From the NCBI GenBank assembly GCA_017499595.2, contig CM039002.1, positions 2,108,001 through 2,172,000 of the forward strand: a stretch of DNA of 64,000 bases, given 5' to 3'. Shown here piece after piece: positions 19,995-64,000 of this stretch (position 1 is its first letter; every line of letters starts with the position of its first letter). Origin of the DNA: Psilocybe cubensis (Eukaryota). Under the pieces are notes generated by a model. It did no database searches and was not told the origin of the DNA. It saw only the letters and a list, made by a program, of their open reading frames with translations. Made by a program: the position numbers and the translations under genes.

Positions 19995-21983
19995 TCAATC
20001 CGTTAAAAACATTTTTCTGAGGTATTCCGTAGCGGCCTGCTTGAGATTCGCCTCTGCATTCGGGTTATTTATCAACTCCTACACAGCACACACAAAAAAA
20101 TATCAGATCAACAACACACTCAACAGCATAAAAAAGCATCACAAGATGAAAGAACGAAAGAAAAAAGAAAGAAAGAAAAGACACATACAATCGCTTTCTC
20201 CGTCTTATTCTTATTCACCGCAGACTTATCCTGCTCCTTCTTGGCATTAAGCTCGCTGACCTCGCGCGCCTCGCGCCGGCGTATATACTCGAGCTTCTCC
20301 TGCGCGAGCTTGGTCTGCAGCGTCAGCAGATTGAGGCAGCTCGAGATGAGGTCCTGTGTGATCGCCACGTTCATGAGCGAGGCCGGGTCGCCCGTGAGGA
20401 TCGGTGTGGGCTGGGGCTGGGGCTGGGGCGCGTGCGCTTGTTGTTGCGCTTGCTGCTGGACTTGTTGTTGTTGTTGACGCTGTTGTTGGTGTTGCGATTG
20501 CTGCTGCTGCTGCTGTTGTTGCTGCTGTTGTTGCTGGTGCGATTGCGGGGGCTGTTGGTGCTGGGGTTGGGGCGGCTGATGTTGTTGGGGTTGATGCTGA
20601 TGCTGCTGCTGTTGTTGTGGATGCTGCTGCTGCGGTTGCGTATGCGATGGACCAGGCCGCAGACCAACAGACGGCGTCTGCGCCAGAGGCGGCGGCGGCT
20701 GAGGCGGATTATCACGCAAATCTCTAGGGTTGATATACACATGCTGTTGTTGCTGTTGCTGTTGCTGCTGCTGCTGGCGGTCGTGCGCCAACCCATTCAT
20801 ACCATTCATATGGGACGACGGATCGCCAAAGTCGATCTGCTGCTCATCGTCGTCCTGCTCGTCTCCACCCACCATACTGTTATTACCCACGCCCGAGTTC
20901 CTTCCCTGCACCGGCCGCGTCGTCGCCGGATCGCCATGCCACCTTATACCCAGATTGTTTGAACATGCCACAAGAGATGGACGGGATGAATGCAAGGCAC
21001 CACTCACCGCTGATAAAAGAGGTCGTACCAGCCGACGCGATGCCAGTGGTCGATGGTGCGCGCGGTGATATTGCCGACGTCGCTGCCCGACTTGCGGGCG
21101 ATCTGCAAACGCCGCTCGTACTCCCGCAGCCTGTCGGCCTCGCCCATCTGCGCGAGATTCGCCTGCCCGGGCCCCGCTGACACATGCGCGGTCTCAAATG
21201 CGTATATCTGCTTGAACAAGTTGAAGTTGCGCTCATAGCAGCCTTTCAATGCCTGGTACGTCTTTTTCCCGCCAAAAACCTCTGCTGCGCACTGTTAAAA
21301 GAAAAAAAAAATTCCGGTGAATTAGCGGACAAAGACGATAGGAAAGAAAAAGAGACGGTACATCTCGCAGACACGAATTTTTTGTGGCACGGAGTGCATT
21401 CCAGTGGTCTTCGTGGCCCATGCCCATGAGCCAGGTGAAGAGCTTTGATTTTTCATCGTCAGTCCAGTGCTTTGCGCCCTGGCCGGCACCCTCGAGATCG
21501 TACATGTCCGAGTCGTCTGCGGGGCCGGTCTCGCGCCTGCGCTTGAGGGCGGCGGGAGCGAGGGCGGGGTCGACGTGCTTGCGCTTCATGGCGGGGGATG
21601 TAGCGGCGGGACCCTGCTGAACGGAAAAAGCGAGCGGGGGGTGGTTTGAGGCCGTGGGAGCATGAGAAGCGGCCTGCTGAGCGAGGGTGGGCGGGGAAGT
21701 AGATGGGTTGCGATAGTCGGCGGGGCGGGAGTAGGAGTTGGCGGGGAGATGGTTGCCCAGCGCCTGGCCGAGCGCGTTCTGGTGGAAAGAGGACTGGTGG
21801 TGGTCAGTAGAGTGGGAGAAGGGGAGAAAGAATGAGATGGACGCACGTTGGAGTCGAGGTTGGGGTCTCGCCTGTCCTGAATGGGAAGGTGGCCGTGGCC
21901 GTACTGCATGGCGGAGTCGCTAGACCATCGTGTTCAGTGAGTGTCAGACGCTCGCTCGCCCGCCGCACTCACCTTTGGTCCAT
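19995..21983 (-). CDS. Gln-rich hypothetical nuclear protein with a Myb/SANT-like WTDDEK motif, multi-exon
   Basis: Exons read KHWTDDEKSKLFTWLMG...LRATKNSCLR, ALKGCYERNFNLFKQIYAFE, then a polyQ tract and a coiled coil. Last exon ELINNPNAEANLKQAATEYLRKMFLTD* stops at 19995. The start may extend to in-frame ATGs at 22037 or 22049. Confidence 0.7.
20440..20777 (-). repeat. CAG/CAA trinucleotide repeats encoding polyglutamine
   Basis: (ctg/ttg)n runs on +, in frame with the Q-rich exon. Confidence 0.85.
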
Positions 21984-47015: not shown

Positions 47016-50000
47016 ATGCGCCACACGGGCAATAATCAATCACAGACTACACCAAACAATAAGGGAAAAGGGAAAGCTAAGGCAGTGAGCTAATTAGACT
47101 GCTTCAGTAACTGGTCGAAGGATTCTAACGTTGATAATTGAAATTTTTGCAGGTTGACAAACCCCATCAGCAACCTCTCGAAGGCCCTGCACAGAATAAT
47201 GACGACAGCTACCAAAATGACATCGAACAAGCCACAAAGAAGAGCAAGAAGAAAAATCTAATCAGAACTGAGCGCGAGCGCAAGGCTGCAACTAGCTCTG
47301 CAGGCGTGGGCCCATCTTCTCAGACGACAAGCCCTGTACGCAACTTTAATACCTCAAGATCATTGGCGATCGGCCATCGCGAGGTACGTTTTCATGTTAT
47401 CTCATTGTGTGCATCTGCAGTAACCCTCACACACAACATCTCCATATCAGGAAACAAATACCACAGACGTCTTTGCTCCTGCAGGCTCTACCACACACTC
47501 GCCAATACAAGTCCACACAAGGGACAATGCAACAACGGGTCGGAATCCATCAACTTTGGTACACTTTTTTGCTGTTATTGCCTGATATGATGGTAGCTCA
47601 TTGTGTGTTTTCCCGATTTAGCAGAGCAACCCCGCTGTTTCTAGCAGTACACAGCAATATATTCCTCCTCCATACAATGATGAGGATTCGATTTCTCCAG
47701 ACACTTATTTTGAGGCGCGGAGGGCACAAAATGAATACTATTCTTCCTTGGAAAATGAACCATTGTACACCGAGCACATTTCCCGATCGCCAACTCCTGA
47801 ACGCTCCGCACCCCCTGCTCCAAGGTGTAGGCCACAAGCAACTTTGAGGCCCGCTTCTCACCAACCAGTCTCAAGTAACAGTGACAATGAAGGCAGATAT
47901 TACAATATCTCCATCTCGTCTAGCCCTTCCCAGTCATTGTCTTCCATTGCCCAGAGCAAAATGTCAATCAACACCAATTGGCCTTTCTCTGTGCCTGAAT
48001 TCTCATTGCCACCATCCAGCCCACCATCTACCGATTATGAAGACGATGAGGATTATGTCCCCGTTCACATGCGGCAAATAGCACCATTACCCGTGAGACG
48101 CTCAACCGCAAGACCAGCTGTTGCCGTACCGCCAAACACATCTGAAGCAACACCTAATCCTTCGATTGATCCTTCTGTGCCAAGTCCTGCTATCCAGGAT
48201 GAGTACATAGAACCGGCTCAGCGGCCTATTGCTGCATTGCCCAGACGCCACCGCATTGCATCTGTAAATCAGGCTTTGTTGGTTGGTGTCTCCAACAGCA
48301 GTGTGGTTCAAGAAAATTCAAGTAGCTCTGGGTTTTCTCAATCAACATCATAATTGGCAATGGCGCTTTAAGCCGTTGGACTGACGGACCCTGGAGTCTT
48401 GTCTTCATTATTGTCAATGGCGCCGCCTCACACCCTCGGACTGACAGGCCATGGAGTCTCAACTTCATCGTCATCAACGGTGCCTGAAGCTTTTGGGCTG
48501 ATGGGTCCTGGAGTCAATTCTTTCAATTTTGGAAACATTAACCTGCCAGGACAAACCACGGGCTTTCCTGTTGCCGTATCTAATATATCTGGAGCGACAT
48601 CTAGTTCTTTGTATGGCGCTTTATCAAGTACTGAGGTCTCCGCTGAGTACATCAAGCCGGCTCGGAGGCCTATTGCTACATTGCCCAGACGGGGCCGCAT
48701 TCCATCTGTGAACCAGGCTTCATCGGTAGCCGCCTTGAACAGCAACACGAACAAGAATCCAGATAACTCTGGTATTTCTCAATCGACTTTGTCATCATCA
48801 ACGGCACCCCAACAGCCTCTTGGTCTCATGGATCCTGGAGTCAGCCCGTTCAACTCTGGAAATGGTGACCTGTATCAGCAGGAGCAGGACATGGCTCACT
48901 TCCTGGCATCTCTGAAATCATCCCAACAGTCCTCCGCTGCTTCAAGTCAGTCTCACAAAACGCAAACTGGTGCACCTCAGGCACATTTGCAGGCACCTAT
49001 CTGGACAAGCAACTCGGATCCAGTCTCAGCAAATATAGCGGCGTGGCAGCCTCCTCGTTCAAGGCTCGAACACGTCTATGTCACCACTCCCCAGGTTCGC
49101 GCAGATGCTAATTCATTCCAGCCTCGAAGGTCTGGACAGTCGTCTAGCAACACCGACGCAACTAGGTACTTTGATATGGATGCTGCTCGGAGGAACAGCG
49201 TTCCAATCGAATTCAACAGACTGGCACCGGGCACGCGCAAACTCGACGAGTGGTTTGATACTCCGGACAGATATCTGGAGGAGGCTGCCAGCATCACCCA
49301 AGGCAGCATGGGCTACAACAATGCCCGAAATCCCTACAGCAACGACGCCAACATGGAGGTTGCAGGACTCGGACAGGGATCGTCGCAATCGACCAGCACT
49401 GGTAGACAAGTCGGGACTGGCTTTCAATTCCACCAGGCTCAAGATTGGGGGTTCCACAACAATCAAGGTTCACGTAAGTTATATTTTTATTCTGAGCGCT
49501 TCAATGTGTTTCAGCCATCTTGTCTAACTTTCATTTATGCGCCCATTATAGACGTGCCGTCATCGTCGACGGCACACCGGAGGGCCCGCTCGAACATGGG
49601 CCTGGTCAACACAAGCGGCACTGGACTTACTAGGACGACCATACCATCATCTGAAATGCGCTCTTCTATTGAAGAGCCATACAGATTCACATTTTTGTCG
49701 TCCACAGTTACTGCTCCCAATTTCCAAATCCACCCGCTTTCCATCCCGACAATTGCTCAACCACCTCGGGCTTTTGAATTTGCTGAACCCCTGAACCTGG
49801 CCAAGTACAATGAGCAAGGAGTCAGCTACAACAGTGTACAAGGACAGGAGGATCCAGTCTACAATGGATCCCAGGAGGACACTCAGGTCATCGAATCCAT
49901 GGACATTGCATCGCAAAACCACGCCAGGGTTTTTGAAATGGAAAAGGACGGTATGAAGACGCCTGCTTATAGCGGGTTGGCTCCTGTCCAGGAAATTTTG

Positions 50001-52881
50001 GAAGCATCTGGTGAGTTTTACGGTCATCTTACGGATTCTCGACATTCCTTCCCAGCCACTGTCACACTGGATCAGGCTCCTAGTTTGGTATCAACATCGT
50101 TGCCGGAATTTGAAGGAGATCAGCGCATCGACACTCAAATGGATGGAAAAATGGATGGAACAGACGGACTGCAAGGTGCAGAGCAGTCCAACAACACCCC
50201 ACCAGCAAACAATGCCGACGAATTGCGCCAGGATTTCGCGCCATTGGCGCCAACAGCTGTGAGTTTTCTTATTGATTGTTCACCAAGTTGATTGTGTGTT
50301 GATGTCATTTGAAGACCCCGGATTTCTTGATGGGAACAGAGGAAACCGCGGACGCTATGTCTTTTGGAGAAGACGGTATGTGCATCAAAATTCTATATAA
50401 TTTTCAAGTCATTTCTAACTCATTATGACCAGGCAACTTTACCAAAGCAGCAATATCGTCAACATTACTAGCTGCCCACTTGACGGGGCAACCGCTGCGT
50501 GAAGCCAAACCAAAGTTGGTCCTTTACATAGCTCTAATTTTCTTTACTAACATCGGCTTGCATTGCATTGCAGCGAAGATCACGCTGCTGATCTATCGAG
50601 GCTTGCGATGGCTTCTGAACCTGTGAGTTCAGAAGTCAATTTTGGTACCATCAAAGCAGGAATTTTGCCAGCGCAAACAACTGCCCACCTGGCGGGGCAG
50701 CCGCAGCAAGAGGCCGTTCCCAGGTATTTGTCTATTATTATTCCAAAAAAGCATTCTTTTGACCATACCTCATCTTCTGGCAGCGCTGATTACCCTGCTG
50801 ATCAGCCGTGGCCTGTGGATTCCATCGACACATGGAATTCTCAATCCGCGGAAATGTGCGTACCTTTATCATGCTTTGAACTCAGTTTTCTAATCATTGC
50901 ACATACTTTGATAGTTTCGATATTGGCAGCGGCATTACAACCAGCGGAAACAACTTTGGGCAGCACATCTACGCCCAAATCCAGTCAAGAGAGGTTTCTG
51001 CATCGGATCCAGCCGATATCGAAGAAGATGGTGAACTCGACTGGCTAGCCAAGTCATTCCAATCAGGTAAGGTATAAACAAATCCTTTACCATCTTTGCT
51101 TACCTTTTCTCGAACTTGCAGTGGTGCCCAATGACCACAGCATGCAGGACTTGGATACTGGAGACAAGGGTGAAACTCCCTTGTCATCGACTCCTCAGCC
51201 TCCACCGCAGCAAAGTCAAGGTGACACTCTGGTAGAAGCCGCGTCTGACGACGCTATGGCTCCCTTACCGGCATTCGAAGGAGTCAACGCCGAGGTCAGT
51301 GCTTTAGGATTCAAGTCCGAGGCAGCTACTAACACATCCCAGATCCCCAGCGAGCTGGATGCCAAAGTAGGCAATGCATGATTGAACAACCTCATCGACC
51401 TGCTTGCCAATTGGTTGCTGACAGATCCGACTGATGCGACCCCCGTCCCCTCCGCCACTGCCCCTTCTGCTGCTGCCCATCAACCGGTAGCCACCGCAGA
51501 GCAGAAGGAGCACTCACCGGTCAACGGCGACTCTGGGACTGGAGAAGGGGAGAATTCTAGTGGTAGGCCACCACTAGAGGTCTCATCTTCTCCTTTTCCA
51601 AGTCCGGTTGAACCCACAGAACCGGCGGTCCTTCAAGGCTCGGATAACGGCTCAACGATGGCGCCGCCCTGTGCATCCCCGGAACCAACGCCAACCACAT
51701 CCCATGAAATCCCAGACTTGGGATCACTGGGTGTGCAGCAAGGTGAGGTCGGCGAGCCAACATCCGCTGAAGTCCTGGATGGGATGGGCTTTAGTACTGG
51801 GGAAACAGGTATGTTTTGACTTTTTAATATACCACAATTCACATGTAATTCCGACACTCTTGCTTCTCTATCTTCTTTACCAGGCAACAAGGTAGCGGCT
51901 CAGGCTCAACAGCCTATTACAGGGCTTTCGGACATCGAGTCAGCGGGAAAGCCCAAAGACAAGAAACGGCGGACCATCAGGCGACCACGTCAGGGCAGGG
52001 AAGAGCGCCCGACCATGGGATGGCCATACCACAGGCCCCCTAATCCCGCTGCGCACATCCGGCCATCGCGATTCGAAGGCAAGATCGTCCGCCATTCCAT
52101 TCCCACTCGCAGGTCGGAGGACATCCCAGTTGTGGAACCAGTGCCACCTACTCGGAAACCAGCGGCCAAGGACGCACTCAAGCGTCTGGAGAGAAGAAAG
52201 TTGGGTATCAATCCACCACCATACCCCAATCGCACCGAGCGACCGGCCTTGCTTGCAAGGCTCGCGCGATTCGGGGCTCAAGAGGTATCCGAGGCGGTAA
52301 CGGCGCCCACCAACTTGCGAGAGGCCCCCAAAGACCCGCTGCCCAAAGCGGCTTCTATCCAGGTTCAACCGGCACCTACTACACTCCCCCGCGTGTCCCA
52401 GGCCATCGTACACCCTCAGCCAACACCCGTCGGCCCGATTCAGGCTGTCCAACGTGATGCGACACCCCAGCCAACTCGAGCGCGAAATGGCGGCCTATTT
52501 GGACACCCCGCACGCATTGAAGGCACACACACGGGCATGCCGCGCGGTCAGGCGCTTCCATTCGAGTCCAAACCAGTGGCTAGGGTAGACCCCATTACTG
52601 CACTGCTCAGGCTCCGACCCCTGGAAGAGCCAGAGGAGGAGGACATGGATAGGAGGCATCGTCGCAATTGCGCTGATCGCAAACGGAAGCGCACTCAGCA
52701 GAGGTGGACGCGGCGCCAGGACCTGGTGGTTGAGACTGAGGAGATGGAGGAAGAGCCGGAAGCGGTGGACATAAGGGAGCTTGACCCTATTCTAACGCTG
52801 CGCGGGTTCGCGACGATGGTGGCGATGTTTGGGGCGGGGTTGTTTTTGGACAGCCTAGTCGGACGATGGTTTGGCGTCTAG
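47016..52881 (+). pseudogene. Large low-complexity orphan gene (S/P/Q-rich, internal repeats, C-terminal hydrophobic segment), probably disrupted
   Basis: A chain of + strand ORFs linked by short GT-AG introns, from MRHTGNNQ (47016) to ...FATMVAMFGAGLFLDSLVGRWFGV* (52881). ORFs 47748-48353 and 48399-50291 share a frame but are split by TAA at 48351 and 48369. Could be two genes. Confidence 0.5.
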
Positions 52882-53368
52882 TCGGCCAAAGCTGATATGT
52901 CGGGTTGTATTTCATTTCGGTAAGCCTCAAACTCCTTGTTCTTCGCTCTGACATGTGTTGACAACAAAATTGCCTCTAAGATTATTTTTATTTCAATTCA
53001 GATATAATAATCTGTAGCATCAGGGATTTGGGGAAAATCAGATACCACATGTAATCTGGCGTCGACACTTATTTGTCCTTGTATGATAATATATTGATGC
53101 TATATACATTATACCATCTTATAATGTTGCACATGTGGAATCCAAATGATACCACAATTACACCGATGATATCAGAAATATATAACCTTATATACCGCTT
53201 ATACCTATGCTGCCAGCCTGATATCATAATATGGTATGGAATAATGTATATACCAGCATTACATTTGTATATACCACATGTAGCTACTTAGGATTATTTA
53301 GTATTGCCTCGGGTGGTCGCTCAAGCCTTGTAGTAGAGTACATGTTCATATTGAAAGCTACAGACACT

Positions 53369-56300
53369 TTACAAATCATCAAAACCAAGATCGTCGTTAT
53401 CAACAGTGTCATTGTCAAAGTCCTCGTTTGCTGAATGACTGTCGATATCTTCATTATCGGACTCTGAGTCATCAGACATGTCATCGGGACACCCAGGTCC
53501 ATCATCTTCTGCTGCCTCAAGTTCTTCTGCAATGTCGGAAGGCTCTTCAAATTGAAATCTTCCTGAGGCTTCTTGGTGACCAATTCCAATGCCGAGATAT
53601 TGAGATAGCATATCACGATCAACAAAGCTGTAAAATTGAAGTCAACACAGTGCAAGACCAAACAATTAGAAACGTACATGTTGACATAGTAGTTCATCCA
53701 GTCATCGGTTTCCTGGGGCGGTCTGGCCTGAGTTGGACCTGTTGTGCGCAACAATTCATTTGTCCGCCCATCAACAAAGGATGGAAGTAGATGACATCCA
53801 CGAACAACCAAAGAAGGGTCCAAAAATCCAAACGCAAATTCATCGTCTTCTACAACAAATCCAATTTTGGGAAGACATGCTAGTTTTCGACCAGATTTGT
53901 ACCCAGGTTCTACCCCCAACCAACGTACCCATAGAAATTCCACTCGCTTTGGGCTGCAATTGCGTGATTTTGGCCCCGTGTGCTGAACGTCTGCATGAAA
54001 AACACCTATCACAGATGCATACCAGAAGGGATGGGCACCTGGTTCCGTTTCTGGAGATAGCACCATGACAAACGGATGGCTTCGTGTGCTGATGGTGTCA
54101 TATGCCCGTCGCATGTCATACGTAGTATAATACGTACGCATAGTATTAACTCAAAACATTGTATTGTTGATAAATCGAAGATTATTACGATCTTCATCAT
54201 CAAAAAGAGAATCTGTGTCGTCGCCGTCAAATGTTCTTCCAGTCAATCGGCCTAGTAGGTGATTCTTGAGGAGATGCAAAAAGTTCTATAAATAGCTATA
54301 TGAACTATTAAAGTGACTTGAACACAAACAATGACTTACCTTCTTTGCAGGATCAGTATCATTTTGCATAAAAGCGAAAATTGGGACTGGCGTATTTCGT
54401 GATTTTGAGATATAGTGCGTGTCTTGAAGATGCCCAGATACTGCTGCTTCTGCCCTTTCAGCTATACAATCCTATTGATAGGGCATTGTACTCTGCAAGG
54501 CCATCATGCGACTGTACTTTTGAGCAATCTGCTTGTTGGCATCCTTTTTGTTTGTCAATTTGTACAATGATTTTAGCAAACGATGGGCCACTTTGCTCTG
54601 CATGATTATATTAGACAGATTGGGTACGATACTATTCAAAACATACCAGTTGAGTTGAATAAGAATCAGTGGTTCCAAAATTTCGAATATGTCGGACATA
54701 ATCCCCTAAAAAATGAAACTTTGGTGTGTTCAGATTGAATTTTATTGAACGTCGGCTTGAAGGTGCTTTGGCTGGTGCATTATTTTCCACAGTAGACGCC
54801 TGTTTCTGTGCTTGACGACGCTGGCGTGCGGCAGTTTCTTGAGGAAGCTCAAAAGTTTCAAAATGAGTACAAGTTACATCTCGAAATTCACGCATTAATT
54901 TGCCAAATTCAAAAGTGAGCTCGTCGAGCAATTTTAAACTCCCTTCGGTATGTATTCGCATCTTGGCCAAACCGTGCCATTTGGCGGTACGGTACAAGAG
55001 CTTTGAAATTTGTCGATCATGTGGATCTGGAAACAGTCCTTCAAATATAGGAATAGCACACTATAGTAGGTATTAGCATGGAATGTAGGTGTGTAAAGCT
55101 TTAGATTCTTACTTGCAAAAGGTCTTCGAAATCATGTGCTGCCAATTTTTTTATTTCCAAAGAATTTTCAGCAAAGTTACGTATAGTACCATTGCCAAAG
55201 GTTGAGACCTGTCGGTATCTGTTATATTTTGAATATTAATTATTAGTATTCAGGCATAGTTTGCACACGTACCGTCTGTCTAGCTCTGTTACAAGTTCAT
55301 TGGAATCCCCTCTAGCAGCATATAGTAATCTAATCAGATGAGTAAATAAGCTTTTCCAGACCCCAATTTCAAACTCATGCAGCAAATCAACAGTTAGCAT
55401 ATCAGACGGGTTAAAATCAAGGCCCAAACGTGCAACAAAAGCATTCTGTGACAATCATCATTTTTGGTTTTTAATCATTAAGAAAATATACGTACTTCTG
55501 TTGGAACACTAGAAAACGGCTTGAGGAGGCGATTGACAACTTCTGATTTTATTGAATGCCCAAGACAATAAATGGCATCACGGGCGAGTGCAACTTGCTC
55601 GACAATGTATTGACGAACTGTTCTATTATCAGTTCGGAGATTCTTGTCACGTTTCAATCCAAGCTGGTCTAGCTTGGACTTTGGCACAAGACAAGTTGGA
55701 CAAGGGCATAGGCTCTTATCTCTAATCGTGACCAATAGAACCCTACAACCAAGGTCCAATCAGTAAAGAACATACAGCAGCAAATAAAACCACACTTTTC
55801 AGGATAATCAGCTGAATATGTGAATATACGCGGATAAAATCGTCTTTCAATGCCGTCATGGCATTTAATAACTATTCCATAAAGGTATGCATGCTTAAAG
55901 TCATTGTCCAATATAATCTTCCAGACACCGTGGATTAACTCGCGTCGACAATGTGTGAGCAGTTGTTGGCTTTGTGATTTCCATTTGGGGTGATTTTCCG
56001 ATGCGAAATCTTTAAACAAGTCTGGAAGCTGTCGGAAAAGTAAATATAAAATCACAAGTAAAGTTATAAAGCATACGCACCGAAGGAATATATGCTAGAT
56101 GATGCAATGCACCAGAGCCGGGCTGAGCACGAATATATTTAGACAAATTTCCTGCCATCACATATATGGGCCATCCTTTGGCATTCCCGAAATTGGTGTA
56201 GTGAGTTGCATCAGAGGCAATTTGAAGAGCAGCCACAACCTTTTCACGTTTACAATTGGGGTTGTCAGGAGGTAATGCACCACGACGCTGAATTGCTTCA

Positions 56301-57389
56301 CTTTTGGCAAGAAATGCATCAGAATTATAGAGTTCGGAAAAGATACGTTCAGATTTGTTGGTACAGGGAGATTGATGCCAAAGCTCAAATGGAGCATAAT
56401 GCATATGCTTGGCTAGAGGGCCCGTAAACATTTCAGTGATAAGAGAGGTGAAGAAGCGATGGAGGAGGCCTGGAACAAGATAAGGAAGAGGTGGACAGTG
56501 TGGGATTCCAGACGGCACCCAAATTCGTACACAGGTTTCTCGGAAATGAGCTCCAAGCCCCAATGTAGCAATTGCCTTGTCCATTCGAGCATGCTCTCGT
56601 CTAGCATCAAAACCAATCAGGTCCTGGGCATTGAAATTGGGTGCAAGTAAAACTGTATCAACGAGCTCATTGATCTGCCCAATAGACTTCAATGTTTGGC
56701 CGTTATTGGCCCATTGCAGTAGAAGATGTACGGTAGACTGAAGATTGGAGATATATGATGTGATCCCATCCAGAATTGAGGACGATAGCTGCTTAAAGGT
56801 AGCTGGTTTGGATGCCAGGTCTTCCAGAGAAAGAAAAGAGTTGGGATCGTGATGTGGGCGTCGAGGGTAGTAGCGCCAAACACCAAACACATTGATTACG
56901 GATGTGAATCGGTCGAGAACATACAGAGTAACCCGACGTGTAGCAGACAGTGGTAATGGTGGTAAAGATGAAACAGGTTCGGGCAGAGTTTGATTATTCC
57001 TACGCGGATTTCTGTGTTGGCGTGATGGGCAGCCAGACCAGGAGGGCATAGAGATCTCGCTATGTGATAACGGGCATGGATCGTGTGTGGAGGGGGTTGG
57101 TGAAGCGGGACAGATATCATCCATGGCACTGGTTTCCTATGCATAAAATGGGTTGGTGCACTGTATTCACAACAAAAGTCAGGCAAGTGCAAGTATGATA
57201 GAAAAAGCTCACATTATTTCTATGTTTTTCACTGCTGTGCCCGTTTGCCCGATTTCTCTTTATTTGGTGGGAAAGTGCTAGGGCCCTCTCGTTCATCTCG
57301 AGTACGTGCACACACTTTGCTGCATGCTTGGATATGCTAGTTTCTTGACTATACGTTGCTTTGCAAAGTGTAGCTGGGCATTTGTACAT
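53369..57389 (-). mobile_element. Plavaka-type transposase gene, degenerate (pseudogene)
   Basis: N-terminal Zn-finger-like YKCPATLCKATY...HAAKC. Motifs ERIFSELYNSDAF, SDATHYTNFGNAKGWPIY, RRFYPRIFTYSADYPEK, CPCPTCLVPK, VDLLHEFEIGVWKSLFTHLIRLL, WHGLAKMRIHT, KFHFLGDY...FGTTDSYSTQ, HPFWYA, EFLWVRW, FGFLDP, FVDRDM. In-frame stops at ~57137, ~54472 and ~54151. Confidence 0.85.
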
Positions 57390-57700
57390 CAGTATTCTGT
57401 ACTGGTTGCTCGCCTGAGAACGTCTAATGCTTCAATTATGAGCAAGAAGGCAGGGACGATTGTGAAAAATGTGTTAACGCGCAGTTGAGACGCGGGTCGC
57501 GCGTCACCGTTATGTGATCTAAGATGGCTGGCTGCTGCCCACCTTTGAACACTTTCTCTCTAGTACGACCCGCTCATCCAGCCTGCACTCCTGAGACACA
57601 ACATCACTTTGACCACCAACGCCACAAAGAATCGCCTCTGCGCGGTACAGCGCCGCCGTGCTGCCCGCATTTGGACTTTTCCAGCCAACGTCAAGAATCT

Positions 57701-57766
57701 CCACTATCCATCTGCGTCGCTCGCGGTTGGCCACCACTATCCATCTGCGTCGCTCGCGGTTGGCCA
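57701..57766. repeat. Perfect 33-bp tandem duplication
   Basis: ccactatccatctgcgtcgctcgcggttggcca occurs twice in tandem. Confidence 0.9.
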
Positions 57767-58023
57767 CCATCGCTCCAATTTGACGTTGTCGGAGTGCGTA
57801 CGAATCAACTGGAAGGTGCGTCGCATTGTCTTGCACAGTGCACAGTCACTGATATGATATGATAGCAAAACAAACATCTACTGGACGACGACGACGACTG
57901 GCCAGGCGGCGACAACTCTTCTCCTTCTCCAAACCCCCCTCCAACCCAAACACCAACCACACCTCCCCTCTCCCACCTGACTGGCTCGACCTCATCACCC
58001 CATCTCCGACGCCGCAACCTACC

Positions 58024-58475
58024 TGTCAGGGTTTCTCCAGTTTCCCCTCTTTATCTTCACAGAATTATCTTATCCTTTCATTATCTTATCAATTATCTGA
58101 TTAGATAGTTTATTTCTTTCATCACAGCCTTCTTGCTCCACTTCTTTCTAGTAAATTCTATATGATTCCTAGTCTTACTCATTCTTTTTCTATATGATGT
58201 CACTTTTATTCTTTAACCTTCCTTTATGATGTAATGTAGGGAATATTCTAGAATAGCTGTAGAGTATAAATACTGGACTTGTAGGTAGCTGTAGCTTCAG
58301 CTTCAATCTCTTAGGATATCCACTATCATTGGTGTGATCTCTTAGAACCATTGAATCTCTCTCACTCTCTTATTCTCTCTTTGCTCTCTTACTCTCCCTC
58401 TGCTCTCTCTCTCTCTCTCTCTTGCTTAATCTTTGTTGGTGGCCTTGTCACACTGATTATAGTGTTGCCCTGACA
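58024..58475 (+). repeat. 5' LTR (452 bp)
   Basis: TG...CA ends with an 8-bp inverted repeat (tgtcaggg/ccctgaca); internal TATAAATA at 58265; (CT)n tract in the 3' part. Confidence 0.9.
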
Positions 58476-58477
58476 GA

Positions 58478-58488
58478 AGATTGAAGCT
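58478..58488 (+). promoter_or_regulatory. Primer-binding site, self-priming type
   Basis: agattgaagct lies 2 nt after the LTR end and is the exact reverse complement of agcttcaatct at 58299-58309 inside the LTR. No TGG (tRNA CCA complement) start. Confidence 0.8.
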
Positions 58489-58979
58489 CTCTCAAGACAA
58501 CTCCACCATCTCTCTTTCAACACCAAACTCTTCACCTCTTCAACCTCTTCAACACCATTACCTCAACCTTCTTTCTCCACTTCCAACCCACCAACCTCTT
58601 CATCAACCTCTTCACCAATCTTCTTACCAATCTCTACATCTCCACCAATCTTCAACATCCTCCTCAAAACCTTTCCTCAAGACCTTTCCTCAAGACCTTT
58701 GGCTCATCATCTTTCCTACTCTCTGTTGTGTGCTGTGTGTGAACTTAGTAGATAGGGATACCAACTGTTGGGGCAGACACAGTCCTACTAGTGTTCTGTT
58801 TTTGGTGGTCTAGGAAATATCCAGTAACCCTGTGATCCTAGGTTTAGAGCCCTGAGTGGTGTGACAACTGGGTATCCAGTAGATAGATATTTTTTTAGAA
58901 TACTTAGTATAGTTTCAAGGGCACTTTCAGTAGATAGCTTCTCCCACACACACATCAGAGAGCCTACCTACCCCTACCC

Positions 58980-60089
58980 ATGGACATGGACCCCTCCCAA
59001 TTGCCTCCCACCACTCCTTCTGTGGAAGAGCTCATGCATCAGGTCCAGCTCCTTACCCAAGAGTTGAATTTTCTTAGACAGCAACAGCAGTCATTATCCA
59101 CTCTACCACACCCTCAGCAACCAGTCAGTCAGTCACCATCACCACCACCACCACCACCACCTGCTGCTCTAGATATTCACTCTTTCCCTACCCCTCATGT
59201 TGCCCCTTCCTGTTCACACTCTGCCATTAAAGTCTCACCTCCAGATCCATTTGATGGTTCTATGGAGAAGGCAGAAAACTTCCTCAGTCAGCTTAAATTA
59301 TATTTCTATGGGAAAGGGATTACAGATGACTTTCAGAAAGTTATTTGTGCTCTATCTCATATGAAAGGAGGTACTGCTGGGAAGTGGGCATATGAGAAGA
59401 CTAAAGTAATAGACAATGCTCAGTCCCAAGAAGGTCTTTGGGCTGACTTTGTTTATGAATTTAGGGAAGTGTTTGCAGATCCAGACCCCTCCAACACAGC
59501 TAAGCATAAAATGCACATGCTCAAGCAAGGCAGACAGACTGCTGATGAGTATGTTGCTAGCTTCAGGGCTCTGATCTCAGATACTGGGTATAATGATGCT
59601 GCTTTGGTAGACCAATTCAAGGCTGGGCTTAATGAAAATCTCAGGAATGCAGTCTACTATGTTCCTGACATGCCCAAAACCTTGGATGGATGGATTAAAT
59701 GGAGTACTAGGCTAGATAGGCAGTGGAGACAGAGTGAGGCCTTTACCAAGTCTCTTTCCTCCTCCTCTTCTTCTCCCTTCCTTAAAGCCCCAACTCCCAA
59801 GGCTGTTCCTAAGCCTACTCCAAATCCTCCAGTCTTTTCCAACAGCAGCTCAAGGACTTTTGGTGCTCAGGCAAAGCAACCAGATGTAGTTCCCATGGAG
59901 GTTGACTCTGGATGGAAGTCAGTTAGGCCAATTGTTTGCTTCAAGTGCAGAAAGCCTGGTCATAAGGCTGTAAACTGCAGGTCATCAGTTAACATCAATG
60001 CTATGACCCATGAAGAACTGGCTGACTACTTTGGGAAATTAATCTTGGAAGGCAAGGAGCAGAAAGATGAGGAAAAGAAAAATTTTTAG
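58980..60089 (+). CDS. gag: Retrotransposon Gag
   Basis: PDPFDG...FLSQL, LKQG...ADEYV...F, VVPMEVD, and the CCHC knuckle CFKCRKPGHKAVNC. Confidence 0.93.
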   Translation: MDMDPSQLPPTTPSVEELMHQVQLLTQELNFLRQQQQSLSTLPHPQQPVSQSPSPPPPPPPAALDIHSFPTPHVAPSCSHSAIKVSPPDPFDGSMEKAENFLSQLKLYFYGKGITDDFQKVICALSHMKGGTAGKWAYEKTKVIDNAQSQEGLWADFVYEFREVFADPDPSNTAKHKMHMLKQGRQTADEYVASFRALISDTGYNDAALVDQFKAGLNENLRNAVYYVPDMPKTLDGWIKWSTRLDRQWRQSEAFTKSLSSSSSSPFLKAPTPKAVPKPTPNPPVFSNSSSRTFGAQAKQPDVVPMEVDSGWKSVRPIVCFKCRKPGHKAVNCRSSVNINAMTHEELADYFGKLILEGKEQKDEEKKNF

Positions 60090-60097
60090 AAGCACCA

Positions 60098-63000
60098 TTG
60101 GTGAAAGACATGTCCCAATGGAATAGATTTAATGTACTAGAAAATGAAATTGACAGACTTGATCCTCAGTCTTCAGATTCTGGTGCAGAAATCATGTCTT
60201 CTTCTTCCTCTCTTTCTACCTTCCCTGAAAAGATCTACATCCTCAACCATAATCCTAAAACCTCTACCCATTTGTCTGTCATCTTAAAGACAATGGACAC
60301 AGAGAAAAGGTTATCTGTTGATGCTTTGCTTGATTCTGGAGCTACTGGCCTCTTTCTGCATTCTGGTTTTGTGAAGTATCATAATCTCAATACAAGGAAA
60401 CTTCCTAGAGCCATTCCAGTCTATAATGTTGATGGTACTCTCAACAAGAGTGGCTCTATCCATGAGGAAGTAGACTTAATTATGGTACACAAAAACCATA
60501 CAGAAAGGGCCACCTTTGCTGTTTGTGACTTGGGAGACAAATCTGCTATCATTGGACATACTTGGCTTTGGCACCATAATCCAGATGTTGATTGGAAGAC
60601 AGGAGATGTTCAGTTTATTAGATGTCCCTCTGACTGCCAAATGGAAGCCAAAAGAGCCAGAAGAAAAAGGCAGAGAATAGCTGCAGTCAAAAGGAGGAAA
60701 CTCCCTCAATTTGATGAAGAAGAAGATGATTCTATTGAAGATTCTTCTGATTCTGAGATTGAGCCTGAGGACAGAATTTTTATCTCATACCTTCATCCTC
60801 AGAAGCAGTCTATTAATGCTACTTCTACTATGTCTCAAAGATTAGCAGAAGAGTCTCATCAGCAAGCTGTTTCCCCTAAGAAAACCTTTGAAGAAACTGT
60901 TCCTAAGCACTATCATCAGTTTAAAGGTGTTTTTTCAAAGGAATCTTTTGATAGGCTACCAGACAGAAAGCCTTGGGATCATGCTATTGAGCTGAAACCT
61001 GGTTCTGAACCTTACAGATCCAAGATTTATCCTCTTTCTCCCAATGAACAAAAGGAACTTGATGCCTTTTTAGAGGAAAATCTGAAGTCTGGCAGGATTA
61101 GACCCTCCAAGTCACCTATGGCCTCCCCTGTATTCTTTGTCAAGAAGAAGGATGGATCTCTTAGGCTTGTCCAGGACTATAGGAAACTGAATGAAATGAC
61201 CATCAAGAACTCCTACCCCCTTCCATTGATTTCTGACATTATCACCAAACTCAGCAAAGCCAAATACTTCACCAAACTTGATGTTAGGTGGGGATTTAAC
61301 AATGTCAGAATCAAAAAGGGAGATGAATGGAAAGCAGCCTTTAGAACCAATAGAGGGCTGTTTGAACCATTGGTCATGTTCTTTGGTTTAACCAATAGTC
61401 CTGCTACCTTCCAAACTATGATGAATGATATCTTTATTGAGCTCATTGATGGAAATGTTGTCATTGTCTACATGGATGACATTTTAATTTTCACTGAGAC
61501 TCTTGATCATCATAGAGAGGTAGTCAAGCAAGTTCTGCAAATCCTAGAACAGAACAAACTCTACCTTAAAGCAGAGAAATGTGAATTTGAAAAGGAAAAG
61601 ATTGAATATCTTGGACTAATCATTTCACAAGGCAGGATTGAGATGGATCCTGTTAAGGTAGAGGGAGTTTTTAAATGGCCTGAACCTGAAAATGTCAAGG
61701 ATGTCCAATCATTCTTGGGATTTGTTAATTTTTATAGAAGGTTCATAGAGGATTTTGCAGACATTGCTAAGCCCCTTCATGAATTGACAAAGAAAGGAAC
61801 AGTCTGGAGATGGGGTCTTAGACAGCAGGAAGCCTTTGACCAGTTAAAGAAGAAAGTCACTTCTTCACCTGTCTTGATTTTCCCTGATGATAACAAGCCA
61901 TATAAAGTTGAAGCAGACAGTTCAGATTATGCTACTGGGGCTGTTTTATCTCAGGAAGGATCAGATGGGAAATGGCATCCTGTAGCCTTTATGTCTAAGA
62001 GTCTATCTGAAGTAGAAAGGAATTATGAGATCCATGACAAAGAGATGCTGGCTATTATCAGAGCACTAGATGAATGGAGACATTATCTTGAAGGAACCCA
62101 ACATTCCTTTGAGATTTGGACAGACCACAAAAACTTAGAGTACTTTATGGTTGCCCAAAAGCTCAGCAGAAGGCAAGCCAGATGGTCACTCTTCCTGTCC
62201 AGATTTGATTTTACTCTTCATCATAGGCCTGGTAAAAGATCTCTTAAGCCAGATGCTTTGTCTAGGAGACCAGATCATAAAAAGGGAGAGAATGATAACC
62301 AAAATGTAGTTCTCCTCAAACCTTCCTACTTTAAAATCCAGGCTCTCAAGCAGGGTCATGCTACCATTACTGGTGCAGAAAATGATCTTCTTAAGAAGAT
62401 TAGAGAAGCTAAGGAGATGGATGAAAAGGTGGTCAAGGCAGTTCAGGAGCTCAAGAAATCTTCAACCAAGAAGATTGAAGGACAGGAATGGTCAGAAGAA
62501 CAAGGTCTTATTCTCTATAGGGGGAAGGTGTATGTTCCCAAGGACAAAGATCTTAGAAGAAAGATTGTGGAACTGCACCATAATGCCTTCATTGCTGGAC
62601 ATCCAGGGAAATGGAAGACAATTGAGCTAGTCTCTAGGAATTATTGGTGGCCAGGAATGTCACATTTTATTGCAGCCTATACCAGAGGTTGTGATAGATG
62701 CAACAGAACCAAAACCTTTCCAGCCAAACCTCTTGGTCTTTTAATTCCTACTGAGATTCCCTCTGATGTCTGGCAATGCATCTCTGTGGACTTTATTATG
62801 GGGTTACCAGAATGTCAAGGGTATAATGCCATTATGGTGGTTGTGGATAGACTTAGTAAAATGATCCACATTATCCCTACTACAGATGAAGTCACTTCTG
62901 AAGGGACAGCCAGACTATACAGAGATTATGTCTGGAAACACCATGGCTTACCCATTAAAATTCTGTGTGATAGAGGTCCACAGTTTGTCTCAAGGTTTAT

Positions 63001-63967
63001 GAAAGAACTCAACTCAATACTTGGTATCCAGACAGCCTCATCTACAGCCTACCATCCCCAAACTGATGGTCAGACTGAAAGAGTTAACCAAGAAATTGAG
63101 CAGTATCTTAGACTCTTTATAAACCATAGACAAGATGATTGGGTTGAATGGTTAGCTCTAGCTGAATTCTCTTATAACAATAGAGTTCAGGCTTCAACCA
63201 GGCAGACACCATTCATGCTCAATAATGGCAGACATCCCAGAATGGGCACTGAACCCCTTAGAGATAGTAAAATGGACACTGTGGATACCTTTGTGAAAAA
63301 TATGGAAGAAGCCAGGAAAGAAGCAGAGTCTGCACTTAGAAAAGCTGCTGATGATATGGCTAAATTCTATAATAGACACAGAGGTACTCCAACTCAGTAC
63401 AAAGTTGGGGATTTGGTATGGTTGGATGGCAAGGACCTCAAAACTGATAGGCCCTCCAAAAAATTGGATGATAAAAGATATGGGCCTTACAAAATTACCA
63501 AAGTTATTAGCCCTAATGCCTATGAGCTTAAGCTGCCATCTACCATGAAAATCCATCCAGTGTTCAATGTGGTTAAACTTCTACCTTATCACCCAGATAT
63601 TGTAGGAAGAAAGCCTCCTTCTAGACCACCACCTGTCATTCAAGGAGAAAATCCTGAGTGGGAAGTTGAATTTATCAAGGACAGTAGACTTTTTAGAAAC
63701 AAACTTCAATATTTGGTCAAGTGGAAGAACTATCCTAATGAAGAATGCACTTGGGAGCCTGCAGAGCATTTGAAAAATGCTTCTAAGGCTATCAAGGACT
63801 TCCATGCCAAACATCCTTCAGCACCTAGAAGGATTTCTGCTGTGACCTTTGATAGACTTTCTTTCACTCCTATTATTAACTTTACTGAACCTCCTCCTCT
63901 TCTTAAACCCTCTAAACTAACCCATCCATGTGCACATTGTGGAAAATGTGCCTTAGAGAGGGGGTGA
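60098..63967 (+). CDS. pol: Retrotransposon Pol (protease, RT, RNase H, integrase, chromodomain), likely expressed by -1 frameshift from gag
   Basis: LLDSGAT (PR); LRLVQDYRKLN and YMDD (RT); DSSDYATG...NYEIHDKEMLA (RH); HHCC, SVDF, DRGPQF, TDGQTER and GPY (IN); WEVEFI...YLVKWKNY...TWEP (chromodomain). Confidence 0.96.
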   Translation: MVKDMSQWNRFNVLENEIDRLDPQSSDSGAEIMSSSSSLSTFPEKIYILNHNPKTSTHLSVILKTMDTEKRLSVDALLDSGATGLFLHSGFVKYHNLNTRKLPRAIPVYNVDGTLNKSGSIHEEVDLIMVHKNHTERATFAVCDLGDKSAIIGHTWLWHHNPDVDWKTGDVQFIRCPSDCQMEAKRARRKRQRIAAVKRRKLPQFDEEEDDSIEDSSDSEIEPEDRIFISYLHPQKQSINATSTMSQRLAEESHQQAVSPKKTFEETVPKHYHQFKGVFSKESFDRLPDRKPWDHAIELKPGSEPYRSKIYPLSPNEQKELDAFLEENLKSGRIRPSKSPMASPVFFVKKKDGSLRLVQDYRKLNEMTIKNSYPLPLISDIITKLSKAKYFTKLDVRWGFNNVRIKKGDEWKAAFRTNRGLFEPLVMFFGLTNSPATFQTMMNDIFIELIDGNVVIVYMDDILIFTETLDHHREVVKQVLQILEQNKLYLKAEKCEFEKEKIEYLGLIISQGRIEMDPVKVEGVFKWPEPENVKDVQSFLGFVNFYRRFIEDFADIAKPLHELTKKGTVWRWGLRQQEAFDQLKKKVTSSPVLIFPDDNKPYKVEADSSDYATGAVLSQEGSDGKWHPVAFMSKSLSEVERNYEIHDKEMLAIIRALDEWRHYLEGTQHSFEIWTDHKNLEYFMVAQKLSRRQARWSLFLSRFDFTLHHRPGKRSLKPDALSRRPDHKKGENDNQNVVLLKPSYFKIQALKQGHATITGAENDLLKKIREAKEMDEKVVKAVQELKKSSTKKIEGQEWSEEQGLILYRGKVYVPKDKDLRRKIVELHHNAFIAGHPGKWKTIELVSRNYWWPGMSHFIAAYTRGCDRCNRTKTFPAKPLGLLIPTEIPSDVWQCISVDFIMGLPECQGYNAIMVVVDRLSKMIHIIPTTDEVTSEGTARLYRDYVWKHHGLPIKILCDRGPQFVSRFMKELNSILGIQTASSTAYHPQTDGQTERVNQEIEQYLRLFINHRQDDWVEWLALAEFSYNNRVQASTRQTPFMLNNGRHPRMGTEPLRDSKMDTVDTFVKNMEEARKEAESALRKAADDMAKFYNRHRGTPTQYKVGDLVWLDGKDLKTDRPSKKLDDKRYGPYKITKVISPNAYELKLPSTMKIHPVFNVVKLLPYHPDIVGRKPPSRPPPVIQGENPEWEVEFIKDSRLFRNKLQYLVKWKNYPNEECTWEPAEHLKNASKAIKDFHAKHPSAPRRISAVTFDRLSFTPIINFTEPPPLLKPSKLTHPCAHCGKCALERG
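63955..63967 (+). other. Polypurine tract (plus-strand primer)
   Basis: agagagggggtga immediately before the 3' LTR, overlapping the last pol codons and the stop. Confidence 0.8.
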
Positions 63968-64000
63968 TGTCAGGGTTTCTCCAGTTTCCCCTCTTTATCT
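63968..64000 (+). repeat. 3' LTR (partial)
   Basis: tgtcagggtttctccagtttcccctctttatct is identical to 58024-58056. Confidence 0.95.

Follow-up and report, generated by a model that had tools for sequence, protein, structure and literature searches.

The right end of a 64-kb window of Psilocybe cubensis DNA (the window is the whole 64,000-nucleotide stretch of contig CM039002.1 that was analysed) is occupied, from position 58024 onwards, by a long terminal repeat (LTR) retrotransposon that is devoid of CpG dinucleotides and at the same time retains open gag and pol frames. In this contribution, we describe this element, the family of near-identical copies to which it belongs and the synonymous way in which its coding sequence lost CpG, and argue that the state is probably that of a whole lineage recoded under a CpG-directed host process.

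The chromovirus at the end of the window

As judged by its sequence, the element is a complete-looking Ty3/Gypsy (Metaviridae) chromovirus. Several features by which Ty3/Gypsy elements are recognized are present, namely direct LTRs of the TG...CA type, a gag with capsid and CCHC motifs and a pol with the domain order protease, reverse transcriptase, RNase H and integrase (PR-RT-RNaseH-IN), and the chromodomain that characterizes chromoviruses lies at the C-terminus of the integrase. The recognizable parts are the following.

58024..58475, plus strand: 5' LTR, 452 bp, with ends TGTCAG...CTGACA, delimited by read edges and sequence
58265..58272, plus strand: TATA-like box TATAAATA in the LTR, read from the sequence, 27 nt before the predicted transcript start; putative function
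58299..58309, plus strand: predicted first 11 nt of the transcript, a putative self-primer, complementary at 11 of 11 positions to 58478-58488
58478..58488, plus strand: putative primer-binding site (PBS) of the self-priming (Tf1) type, 2 nt past the LTR end
58980..60089, plus strand: gag, 369 aa, with capsid and CCHC zinc knuckle (open reading frame, ORF, and Pfam: Ty3_capsid 3e-10, Retrotrans_gag 3.5e-9, zf-CCHC 3.3e-4)
60071..63967, plus strand: pol frame, 1298 codons open, -1 relative to gag (listed ORF of 1289 aa from TTG, 60098-63967)
60080..60086, plus strand: candidate -1 frameshift heptamer A_AAT_TTT, read from the sequence, abutting the gag stop codon TAG at 60087-60089
60326-60349, plus strand: protease motif LLDSGATG (DSG at aa 79-81), from the translation, in nearly invariant alignment columns
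61139-61624, plus strand: reverse transcriptase (Pfam RVT_1 1e-37; YMDD present)
61886-62206, plus strand: RNase H (Pfam RT_RNaseH 5.5e-39)
62543-62716, plus strand: integrase zinc domain (Pfam Integrase_H2C2 2.7e-19)
62774-63058, plus strand: integrase core (Pfam rve 3.1e-10)
63407-63592, plus strand: SH3_Tf2-1 domain (Pfam 3.7e-18)
63659-63808, plus strand: chromodomain (Pfam Chromo 2.5e-15, pol aa 1188-1237)
63955..63964, plus strand: polypurine tract (PPT) AGAGAGGGGG, read from the sequence, within the end of pol and 3 nt before the 3' LTR; putative function
63968..64000, plus strand: first 33 bp of the 3' LTR, identical at 33 of 33 positions to 58024-58056; the window ends there

The boundaries of the element were located with the help of public sequencing runs. 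Fifteen runs from seven studies were listed as containing part of positions 56000-64000 of the window, 11 of them with at least half of its words, and four were compared with the window: X18 (raw reads of another strain, whose species label is the same as that of one of the runs containing the window sequence), X1 and X3 (contigs), and X14. At the left LTR edge, X18 reads leave into many different flanks at 58022-58024 (63+659+1149 reads), and loose read ends, again with many different flanks, mark the right edge at 58475-58478 (951+289+84 reads). Since 809 reads of X18 join 63967 to 58024, position 63967 is the last of the internal part and 63968 the first of the 3' LTR, which makes the complete element about 6.4 kb long. 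The original prediction, which was made from the letters of the window, had described a CpG-free element of about 6 kb reaching to the window end; the CpG-free extent of 58024-64000 is correct, while the last 33 bases belong to the 3' LTR and the full size is larger. Its unbroken gag of 369 aa and unbroken pol were also found as described, except that the pol, given there as 1289 aa, is a -1 frame open from 60071. A (CT)n run is present in the LTR at 58391-58433, where reads appear to be cut, and the leader varies in length among copies: 682 of 1566 reads have a 13-bp deletion at 58661, and 584 of 1389 have a 1-bp insertion at 58889.

The leader of the element has the layout of predicted self-primed reverse transcription, a mechanism known from Tf1, and is thus Tf1/sushi-like, here in an agaricomycete chromovirus. 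The start of the transcript at 58299 is predicted from the position of the TATA-like box, and the pair formed by 58299-58309 and 58478-58488 is the sole inverted repeat found in the 597 bp of 58024-58620. Both arms are paired in the minimum-energy and in the centroid fold, with further stems predicted between them. The 202-nt leader as a whole folds no better than its shuffles (z -1.57), and it is therefore the position of the 11-nt duplex alone that is informative. Further downstream, pol is most likely made as a Gag-Pol fusion, to judge from the overlap of the two frames and from the heptamer A_AAT_TTT, which fits the X_XXY_YYZ rule for -1 slippery sites and at which frameshifting may take place. 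With its protein motifs, PBS, PPT and slippery heptamer in place, the machinery of the element looks functional. No other copies or fragments of the element were found within the 64-kb window by tblastn or blastn, which leaves a Plavaka-type DNA transposon relic to the left of the element as the only comparison available inside the window.

Total CpG loss and synonymous recoding

The original prediction had claimed, after a scan by eye, that there is no CG from the first LTR base to the window end. Counting bears this out: positions 58024-64000 hold 0 CpG against 253.7 expected (5977 bp; C 1305, G 1162; G+C 41.3%), while the mirror dinucleotide GpC occurs 201 times, at an observed/expected ratio (o/e) of 0.79. 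The lowest count in 2000 mononucleotide shuffles of the same sequence is 212 CpG, and any other 5977-bp stretch of the window holds at least 213. The window has its final CpG at 58013, 10 bp left of the LTR start, and the CpG-free run at the element is 5988 bp long, the runner-up anywhere in the window being 192 bp. The absence extends to every part of the element, coding or not:

LTR, 58024-58475: CpG expected 13.6, observed 0
Non-coding 5' part (LTR and leader), 956 bp: CpG expected 34.4, observed 0; minimum of 20 in 5000 shuffles
gag: CpG expected 57.3, observed 0
pol: CpG expected 156.3, observed 0

The 541 bp of left flank at 57480-58020 contain 43 CpG (o/e 1.07); CpG thus disappears abruptly at the border of the element, as had been proposed. 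The deficiency is confined to the transposon: against the o/e of 0 in the element, the part of the window occupied by host genes (positions 1-46000) has an o/e of 0.965. The Plavaka-type region at 53200-57500, whose transposase domain (56015-57136, minus strand) is the sole Pfam match among ten long open frames of the window, has an o/e of 0.756; the relic next door thus keeps its CpG, and CpG-freeness is not common to every transposon here. Among the outcomes that would speak against it, the original prediction had named an ordinary CpG o/e on a real count and equal CpG-freeness of all transposon families; the count gave an o/e of 0 for the element and 0.76 for the relic.

The dinucleotides into which CpG is converted by deamination, TpG and CpA, have o/e values of 1.23 and 1.15 in the element and of 1.12 and 1.13 in the remaining window, and they occur in similar numbers (416 TpG and 446 CpA), i.e., without strand asymmetry. 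Repeat-induced point mutation (RIP) of the ascomycete type, which has a CpA-to-TpA bias and is usually called with index thresholds of 0.89 for TpA/ApT and 1.03 for (CpA+TpG)/(ApC+GpT), was considered and rejected, the two indices of the element being 0.76 and 1.56.

Elsewhere in the window, one exon of a gene for an ABC transporter matches a Psilocybe cubensis UniRef protein at 100% identity, the next best matches (65-73%) being in other Agaricales. Two of the long open frames without a Pfam match are located at 20123-21193 (minus strand) and 47622-50288 (plus strand), one of them very rich in glutamine runs, and two Ser/Pro-rich frames have in common an internal repeat of 280 bp with 69% identity (48118-48398 and 48568-48842).

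The codons of gag and pol reveal how CpG was avoided. Arginine is encoded by AGA 58 times and by AGG 33 times and never by CGN (91 of 91 codons), in agreement with the original prediction that only AGA and AGG would be found; there are no NCG codons (GCG, CCG, TCG or ACG); and a third-base C is found before none of the 479 codons that start with G, whereas it is present before 27%, 19% and 30% of codons starting with A, C and T, respectively. Comparison with nine intact relatives with a normal CpG content (described below) indicates that this change left the encoded residues largely in place. All 14 Arg positions conserved in these relatives, where they use CGN in 82 of 122 cases, are kept as Arg (AGA or AGG) in the element. 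At 19 positions an in-codon CpG is present in at least five of the nine relatives, and the element keeps the residue at 18 of them; the baseline agreement over all majority positions is 533 of 636. Deamination of CGN leads to Cys, Trp, stop, His or Gln codons and not to AGA or AGG, which means that the recoding passed through selection. The recoding of the element is thus synonymous.

A young family, its relatives and the mutation pressure

The depth of X18 raw reads is about 45 in the flank, about 1480 in the internal part and about 3770 in the LTR, which corresponds to about 33 internal copies and leaves, in the surplus of LTR depth, room for some 15-20 extra solo LTRs, all these figures being rough since they come from reads at least 85% alike. 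When X18 reads are compared with the window copy, 40281 of 70590 (57%) are at least 99% alike and 27041 fall between 95 and 99%, and the X1 and X3 contigs differ from it at 0-7 positions over 300-1900 bp. The element is therefore a member of a young, near-identical family of roughly 33 copies and not a lone copy. Among the variants listed, four substitutions are near-fixed differences between the family and the window copy, and none of them makes a CpG; nor is a CpG created by the four indels and three inserts listed for the element. As flank variants with about 50% support are listed, the 253 further variant rows of the element should be minority variants, and we infer from this that the majority sequence of the family is CpG-free. 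One X1 contig follows the flank up to 58024 and then continues in unlike sequence, a weak hint at an empty site in that strain. None of the listed runs is given as an RNA run; in X14, for which the label RNA is a guess, six pieces of 152-231 nt with a depth of 2.4-4.5 lie inside the element and none in the flank, and no conclusion was drawn from them.

Protein relatives of the pol are numerous (5763 at E of at most 0.001 among 8000 scored candidates). The nearest, with 60-88% identity, are mostly on metagenome or run contigs of 4-6.6 kb. Psilocybe cf. subviscida accounts for seven members of the closest cluster (P0001, 88% identity), six with a length of 1253 aa, which fits a long residence of the family in the genus Psilocybe. 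The length of the 4-6.6-kb contigs of close relatives (P0001-P0120) amounts to about one element and one LTR and could reflect collapsed repeats, transcripts or circular forms.

At the DNA level, 94 loci with 29-60% pol identity were compared, the closest relatives (60-88%) lying outside this set. At least 80 of the loci, with 41-60% identity among the matches listed, are from metagenomes, and three, with 29-59% identity, are on contigs of prokaryote genomes; no relative above 53% identity was found on the viral contigs scanned. The whole-locus CpG o/e of the 80 metagenome loci listed ranges from 0.13 to 1.22, and the 12 loci nearest to the query among those listed (54-59% identity) have an o/e of 0.60-1.29 over the match, which makes the purge younger than that divergence. 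The use of CGN for Arg rises and falls with the CpG content of the loci, between 101 of 118 Arg codons in L021 and 1 of 74 in L063, and the most CpG-depleted fungal relatives among the loci listed still have a pol o/e of 0.12-0.13.

The integrity of the relatives was compared over the 71 loci in which 1000 aa of pol or more are covered. Nine have no stop or frame change, and their CpG o/e is 0.63-1.29. All of the 42 loci with an o/e below 0.63 are broken, with 2-25 stops or frame changes each, and over the whole set CpG o/e and the number of pol defects are correlated with a Spearman coefficient of -0.64 (p 2e-9). Ten loci keep a frame of 1000 aa or more open, at an o/e of 0.65-1.30; the window element has 1298 open codons at an o/e of 0. 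With no CpG and no defects it lies far off the trend of the 71 loci, and the degeneration that otherwise accompanies CpG loss is not seen in its gag, its pol or its conserved Arg positions.

Several related contigs contain DNA that is more depleted than the chromoviruses themselves. Stretches of L080 (4400-8808), L013 (5400-9649), L017 (1-2900) and L023 (1-1690) are A+T-rich (25-38% G+C) with a CpG o/e of 0-0.12, and the chromoviruses inside these flanks keep an o/e of 0.3-0.6; they look like younger elements within old, fully CpG-decayed repeat DNA. The record behind L094-L100 (G001, C1; 6.65 Mb), labelled as an actinobacterial metagenome-assembled genome, has 105 pol matches at 4.38-6.65 Mb, in its last third, with 34-41% G+C, a CpG o/e of 0-0.18 and many stops, mostly TGA. 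The chromovirus-bearing part is surely of eukaryotic origin, which means that the record carries a wrong label or is a chimera. Its stops are aligned with Arg of the query pol in 35 cases and with Trp in 27, and the TGA codons at Trp positions might point to a different genetic code. This record and the nearly CpG-free contig flanks illustrate the usual appearance of CpG loss in this group of elements.

The 2 kb to the left of the element allow a glimpse of the mutation process. The differences listed between X18 and the window at 56018-57933 number 36 (X3 is identical to the window there and X1 is a mosaic). In 20 of the 36 a CpG of X18 is TpG or CpA in the window and in two the reverse is seen, so that CpG sites account for 22 of the listed differences though they make up about a tenth of the bases. 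This bias fits methylation-linked decay of a transposon relic; the 20:2 asymmetry itself might come from chromatin spreading from the insertion or from haplotype history, there being no outgroup. From the listed counts, CpG is lost roughly 30-55 times faster than transitions occur at other sites (a hand estimate). At such a ratio the mutation balance over the 862 TpG and CpA sites of the element predicts 16-29 CpG, and the probability of zero is below 1e-6; a loss/gain ratio of 150-300 would be needed to make zero likely, the probability being 0.06 at 300. Mutation alone thus seems insufficient for zero CpG. As the ratio derived from the flank is too low, it is suggested that either a stronger process operates in repeats than in the flank or CpG-bearing copies leave fewer descendants.

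Origin of the CpG-free state and known systems

The explanation that we consider probable is that the whole lineage of this young Tf1/sushi-like chromovirus family has been recoded to a CpG-free state under the combined action of CpG-directed methylation or mutation and of purifying selection. In Agaricales, cytosine methylation would fall almost solely on CpG in repeats, and methylated CpG would mutate fast to TpG or CpA. CpG-bearing copies would be methylated, silenced and mutated to stops and damaging replacements, and would leave no progeny. In the long term, only those lineages would have kept transposing which used synonymous CpG-free codons, having swapped CGN for AGA or AGG, NCG for other codons, and C|G at codon junctions for T|G. 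The end state would give CG methylation nothing to act on and contain no hot spots of CpG mutation, which may help copies to remain intact and able to amplify. The parts of this explanation that we infer are the methylation in this host, the escape of the element from silencing, its current activity and the contribution of selection. For the host, CG methylation is extrapolated from the pattern in the flank and from the methylome of Pleurotus ostreatus, where methylation is on repeats and amounts to 4.0% at CpG and 0.5-0.6% at CHG and CHH (PMC6191308).

A stronger form of this explanation, which we put forward tentatively and hold with less than even confidence, is that the CpG-free state is a counter-defence: the lineage would be invisible to CG-only methylation and immune to CpG hypermutation, and hence transcribed, intact and mobile while CpG-bearing families decay. 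The original prediction had combined both ideas in a lineage purged under purifying selection and possibly evading methylation. Its part concerning a non-passive loss with intact coding stands, while escape would be one possible driver beside mutation pressure with survivorship.

Several points weigh against the explanation that we prefer. A hypermutation process of sufficient strength could have removed all CpG even if escape brought no advantage, and the estimate of the mutation rate is crude, being derived from the listed rows of one 2-kb stretch. The excess of TpG and CpA in the element is only mild, so the lost CpGs are not traceable to deamination, and the loss is perhaps old or took other routes. 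Family-wide absence of CpG rests on the variants listed, with the 253 further rows taken as minority ones, and host methylation is itself an extrapolation. Finally, the related loci are metagenome contigs with unnamed hosts and 41-60% identity, whose stops may partly be assembly errors.

The most serious of the alternatives, although we regard it as unlikely, is a neutral end point: very efficient repeat-directed CpG-to-TpG hypermutation, either RIP-like or by methylation and deamination, would have removed all CpG while the proteins were kept by ordinary purifying selection, with no benefit from the loss. It shares its mutational driver with the lineage-recoding explanation, and the two differ only in whether escape matters. 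CpG-biased C-to-T mutation is on record for basidiomycete transposons (PMC4352252, PMC6980582, PMC3318451), CpG losses outnumber gains among the listed differences of our flank, related contigs and the L094 record hold multi-kb stretches nearly free of CpG, and the highest loss/gain ratio considered above leaves zero CpG within reach. However, the ratio actually derived from the flank predicts residual CpG, the most depleted fungal relatives have not reached zero in pol, and relatives that lost CpG also lost their frames, whereas the window element lost none.

It is also possible, but rather improbable, that the CpG-free state was acquired in another, extremely CpG-depleted host, from which the element recently arrived by horizontal transfer, invaded P. 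cubensis and underwent a burst. The youth and near-identity of the family, its G+C content of 41% and dinucleotide make-up unlike those of host genes, the presence of near-identical sequence in runs under several organism labels and the location of most close protein relatives on metagenome contigs would all agree with such an arrival. However, transposon composition usually differs from that of host genes, the organism labels are coded and perhaps denote strains or close relatives, and no donor was identified; the closest named relatives being in another Psilocybe is a mild argument for residence in the genus.

We consider it very unlikely that the motif was purged from retroelements only, by a CpG-preferring cytidine deaminase editing cDNA during reverse transcription. 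Motif depletion under editing enzymes is known in viruses, and the neighbouring relic of a DNA transposon keeps its CpG while the retroelement has none; such editing is at odds with the even numbers of TpG and CpA, with the CpG kept by related retroelements and with the CpG bias of change in a flank that is not a retroelement. An assembly or sequencing artefact, or passive decay of a single dead copy, to which only the bare loss of CpG would point, has a negligible probability and was rejected, given the open frames, the synonymous recoding with all 14 conserved Arg retained and the presence of the sequence in three independent runs (X18, X1 and X3). Passive decay of a single copy is excluded, as the original prediction had held, by the intact frames, the synonymous recoding, the many near-identical copies whose near-fixed differences are CpG-free, and the relatives that lose their frames along with CpG.

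CpG methylation is the main DNA-level mark of transposons in mushrooms, and the CpG decay that attends it is usually read as the signature of a dead element. An autonomous 6.4-kb CpG-free element with open genes and about 33 near-identical copies reverses this reading, since here CpG loss goes with survival, and filters in which CpG o/e marks repeats as old and inactivated would misjudge a family of this kind. If the family proves to be unmethylated and active, it would offer a natural test of whether CG methylation is needed for transposon silencing in basidiomycetes, whether other marks, such as H3K9 methylation and small RNAs, can still work where CG methylation has no target, and to what extent transposon evolution can circumvent a defence that depends on sequence. 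Should the counter-defence explanation hold, this would be a natural "stealth" element, and transposons would be able to escape DNA methylation by eliminating its target site.

CpG-poor transposons of basidiomycetes are known already. CpG-biased C-to-T mutation and CG deficiency were described by Amselem 2015 (PMC4352252), CpG-biased transposon mutation was found in Tricholoma matsutake (PMC6980582), an excess of mutation at CpG in Agaricomycotina was attributed to methylcytosine deamination by Horns 2012 (PMC3318451), and a CG-deficient fraction of basidiomycete transposons was reported by Clutterbuck 2017 (Fungal Genet Biol 104:16, as cited in PMC11451569 and PMC10787394). Our case is similar in that CpG loss is confined to the transposon, genes are CpG-normal and the relic next to the element shows C-to-T change at CpG sites. 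It differs in that those transposons were tied to inactivation, whereas the present element, though fully stripped of CpG (0 of about 254), has open gag and pol frames, was recoded synonymously and belongs to an amplified family. A literature search found no CpG-free yet intact and amplified fungal retrotransposon in the main texts covered, and Clutterbuck 2017 may already describe such elements; it also found nothing on CpG in Psilocybe transposons, and no passage on CpG was found in PMC12543289. This suggests that total CpG loss in an intact, amplified family is the new aspect, though an earlier description is possible.

The nearest parallel for an adaptive interpretation is found in Microbotryum, where element lineages poor in TpCpG at non-synonymous sites were read as a counter-adaptation (Hood 2005, via PMC3318451). 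In both cases the target motif of a host mutation process is depleted; in Microbotryum, a member of another subphylum, the motif is a trinucleotide and the depletion partial, whereas here all CpG is gone, including that of the non-coding LTR and leader.

A looser parallel is provided by RNA viruses and retroviruses, which show natural CpG suppression, and by CpG-free transgene vectors, which resist silencing. In all of them loss of CpG avoids a host system that reads CpG. The viral and vector cases, however, concern RNA sensing or engineered DNA in animals, and viral depletion is partial while that of the element is total.

In its architecture the element is closest to the Tf1/sushi group, as represented by Tf1 and Tf2 of Schizosaccharomyces pombe, with which it shares the PR-RT-RNaseH-IN-chromodomain order, the SH3_Tf2-1 domain and the 11-nt self-priming complement. 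It is distinguished from this group by its agaricomycete host and its lack of CpG, and from Tf1, in which gag and pol form one frame, by having them in two frames with a candidate -1 slippery site between them. A sister family is that of Psilocybe cf. subviscida (for example KAF5321726.1), which, as compared by protein only, has 88% pol identity, the same set of domains and several full-length copies.

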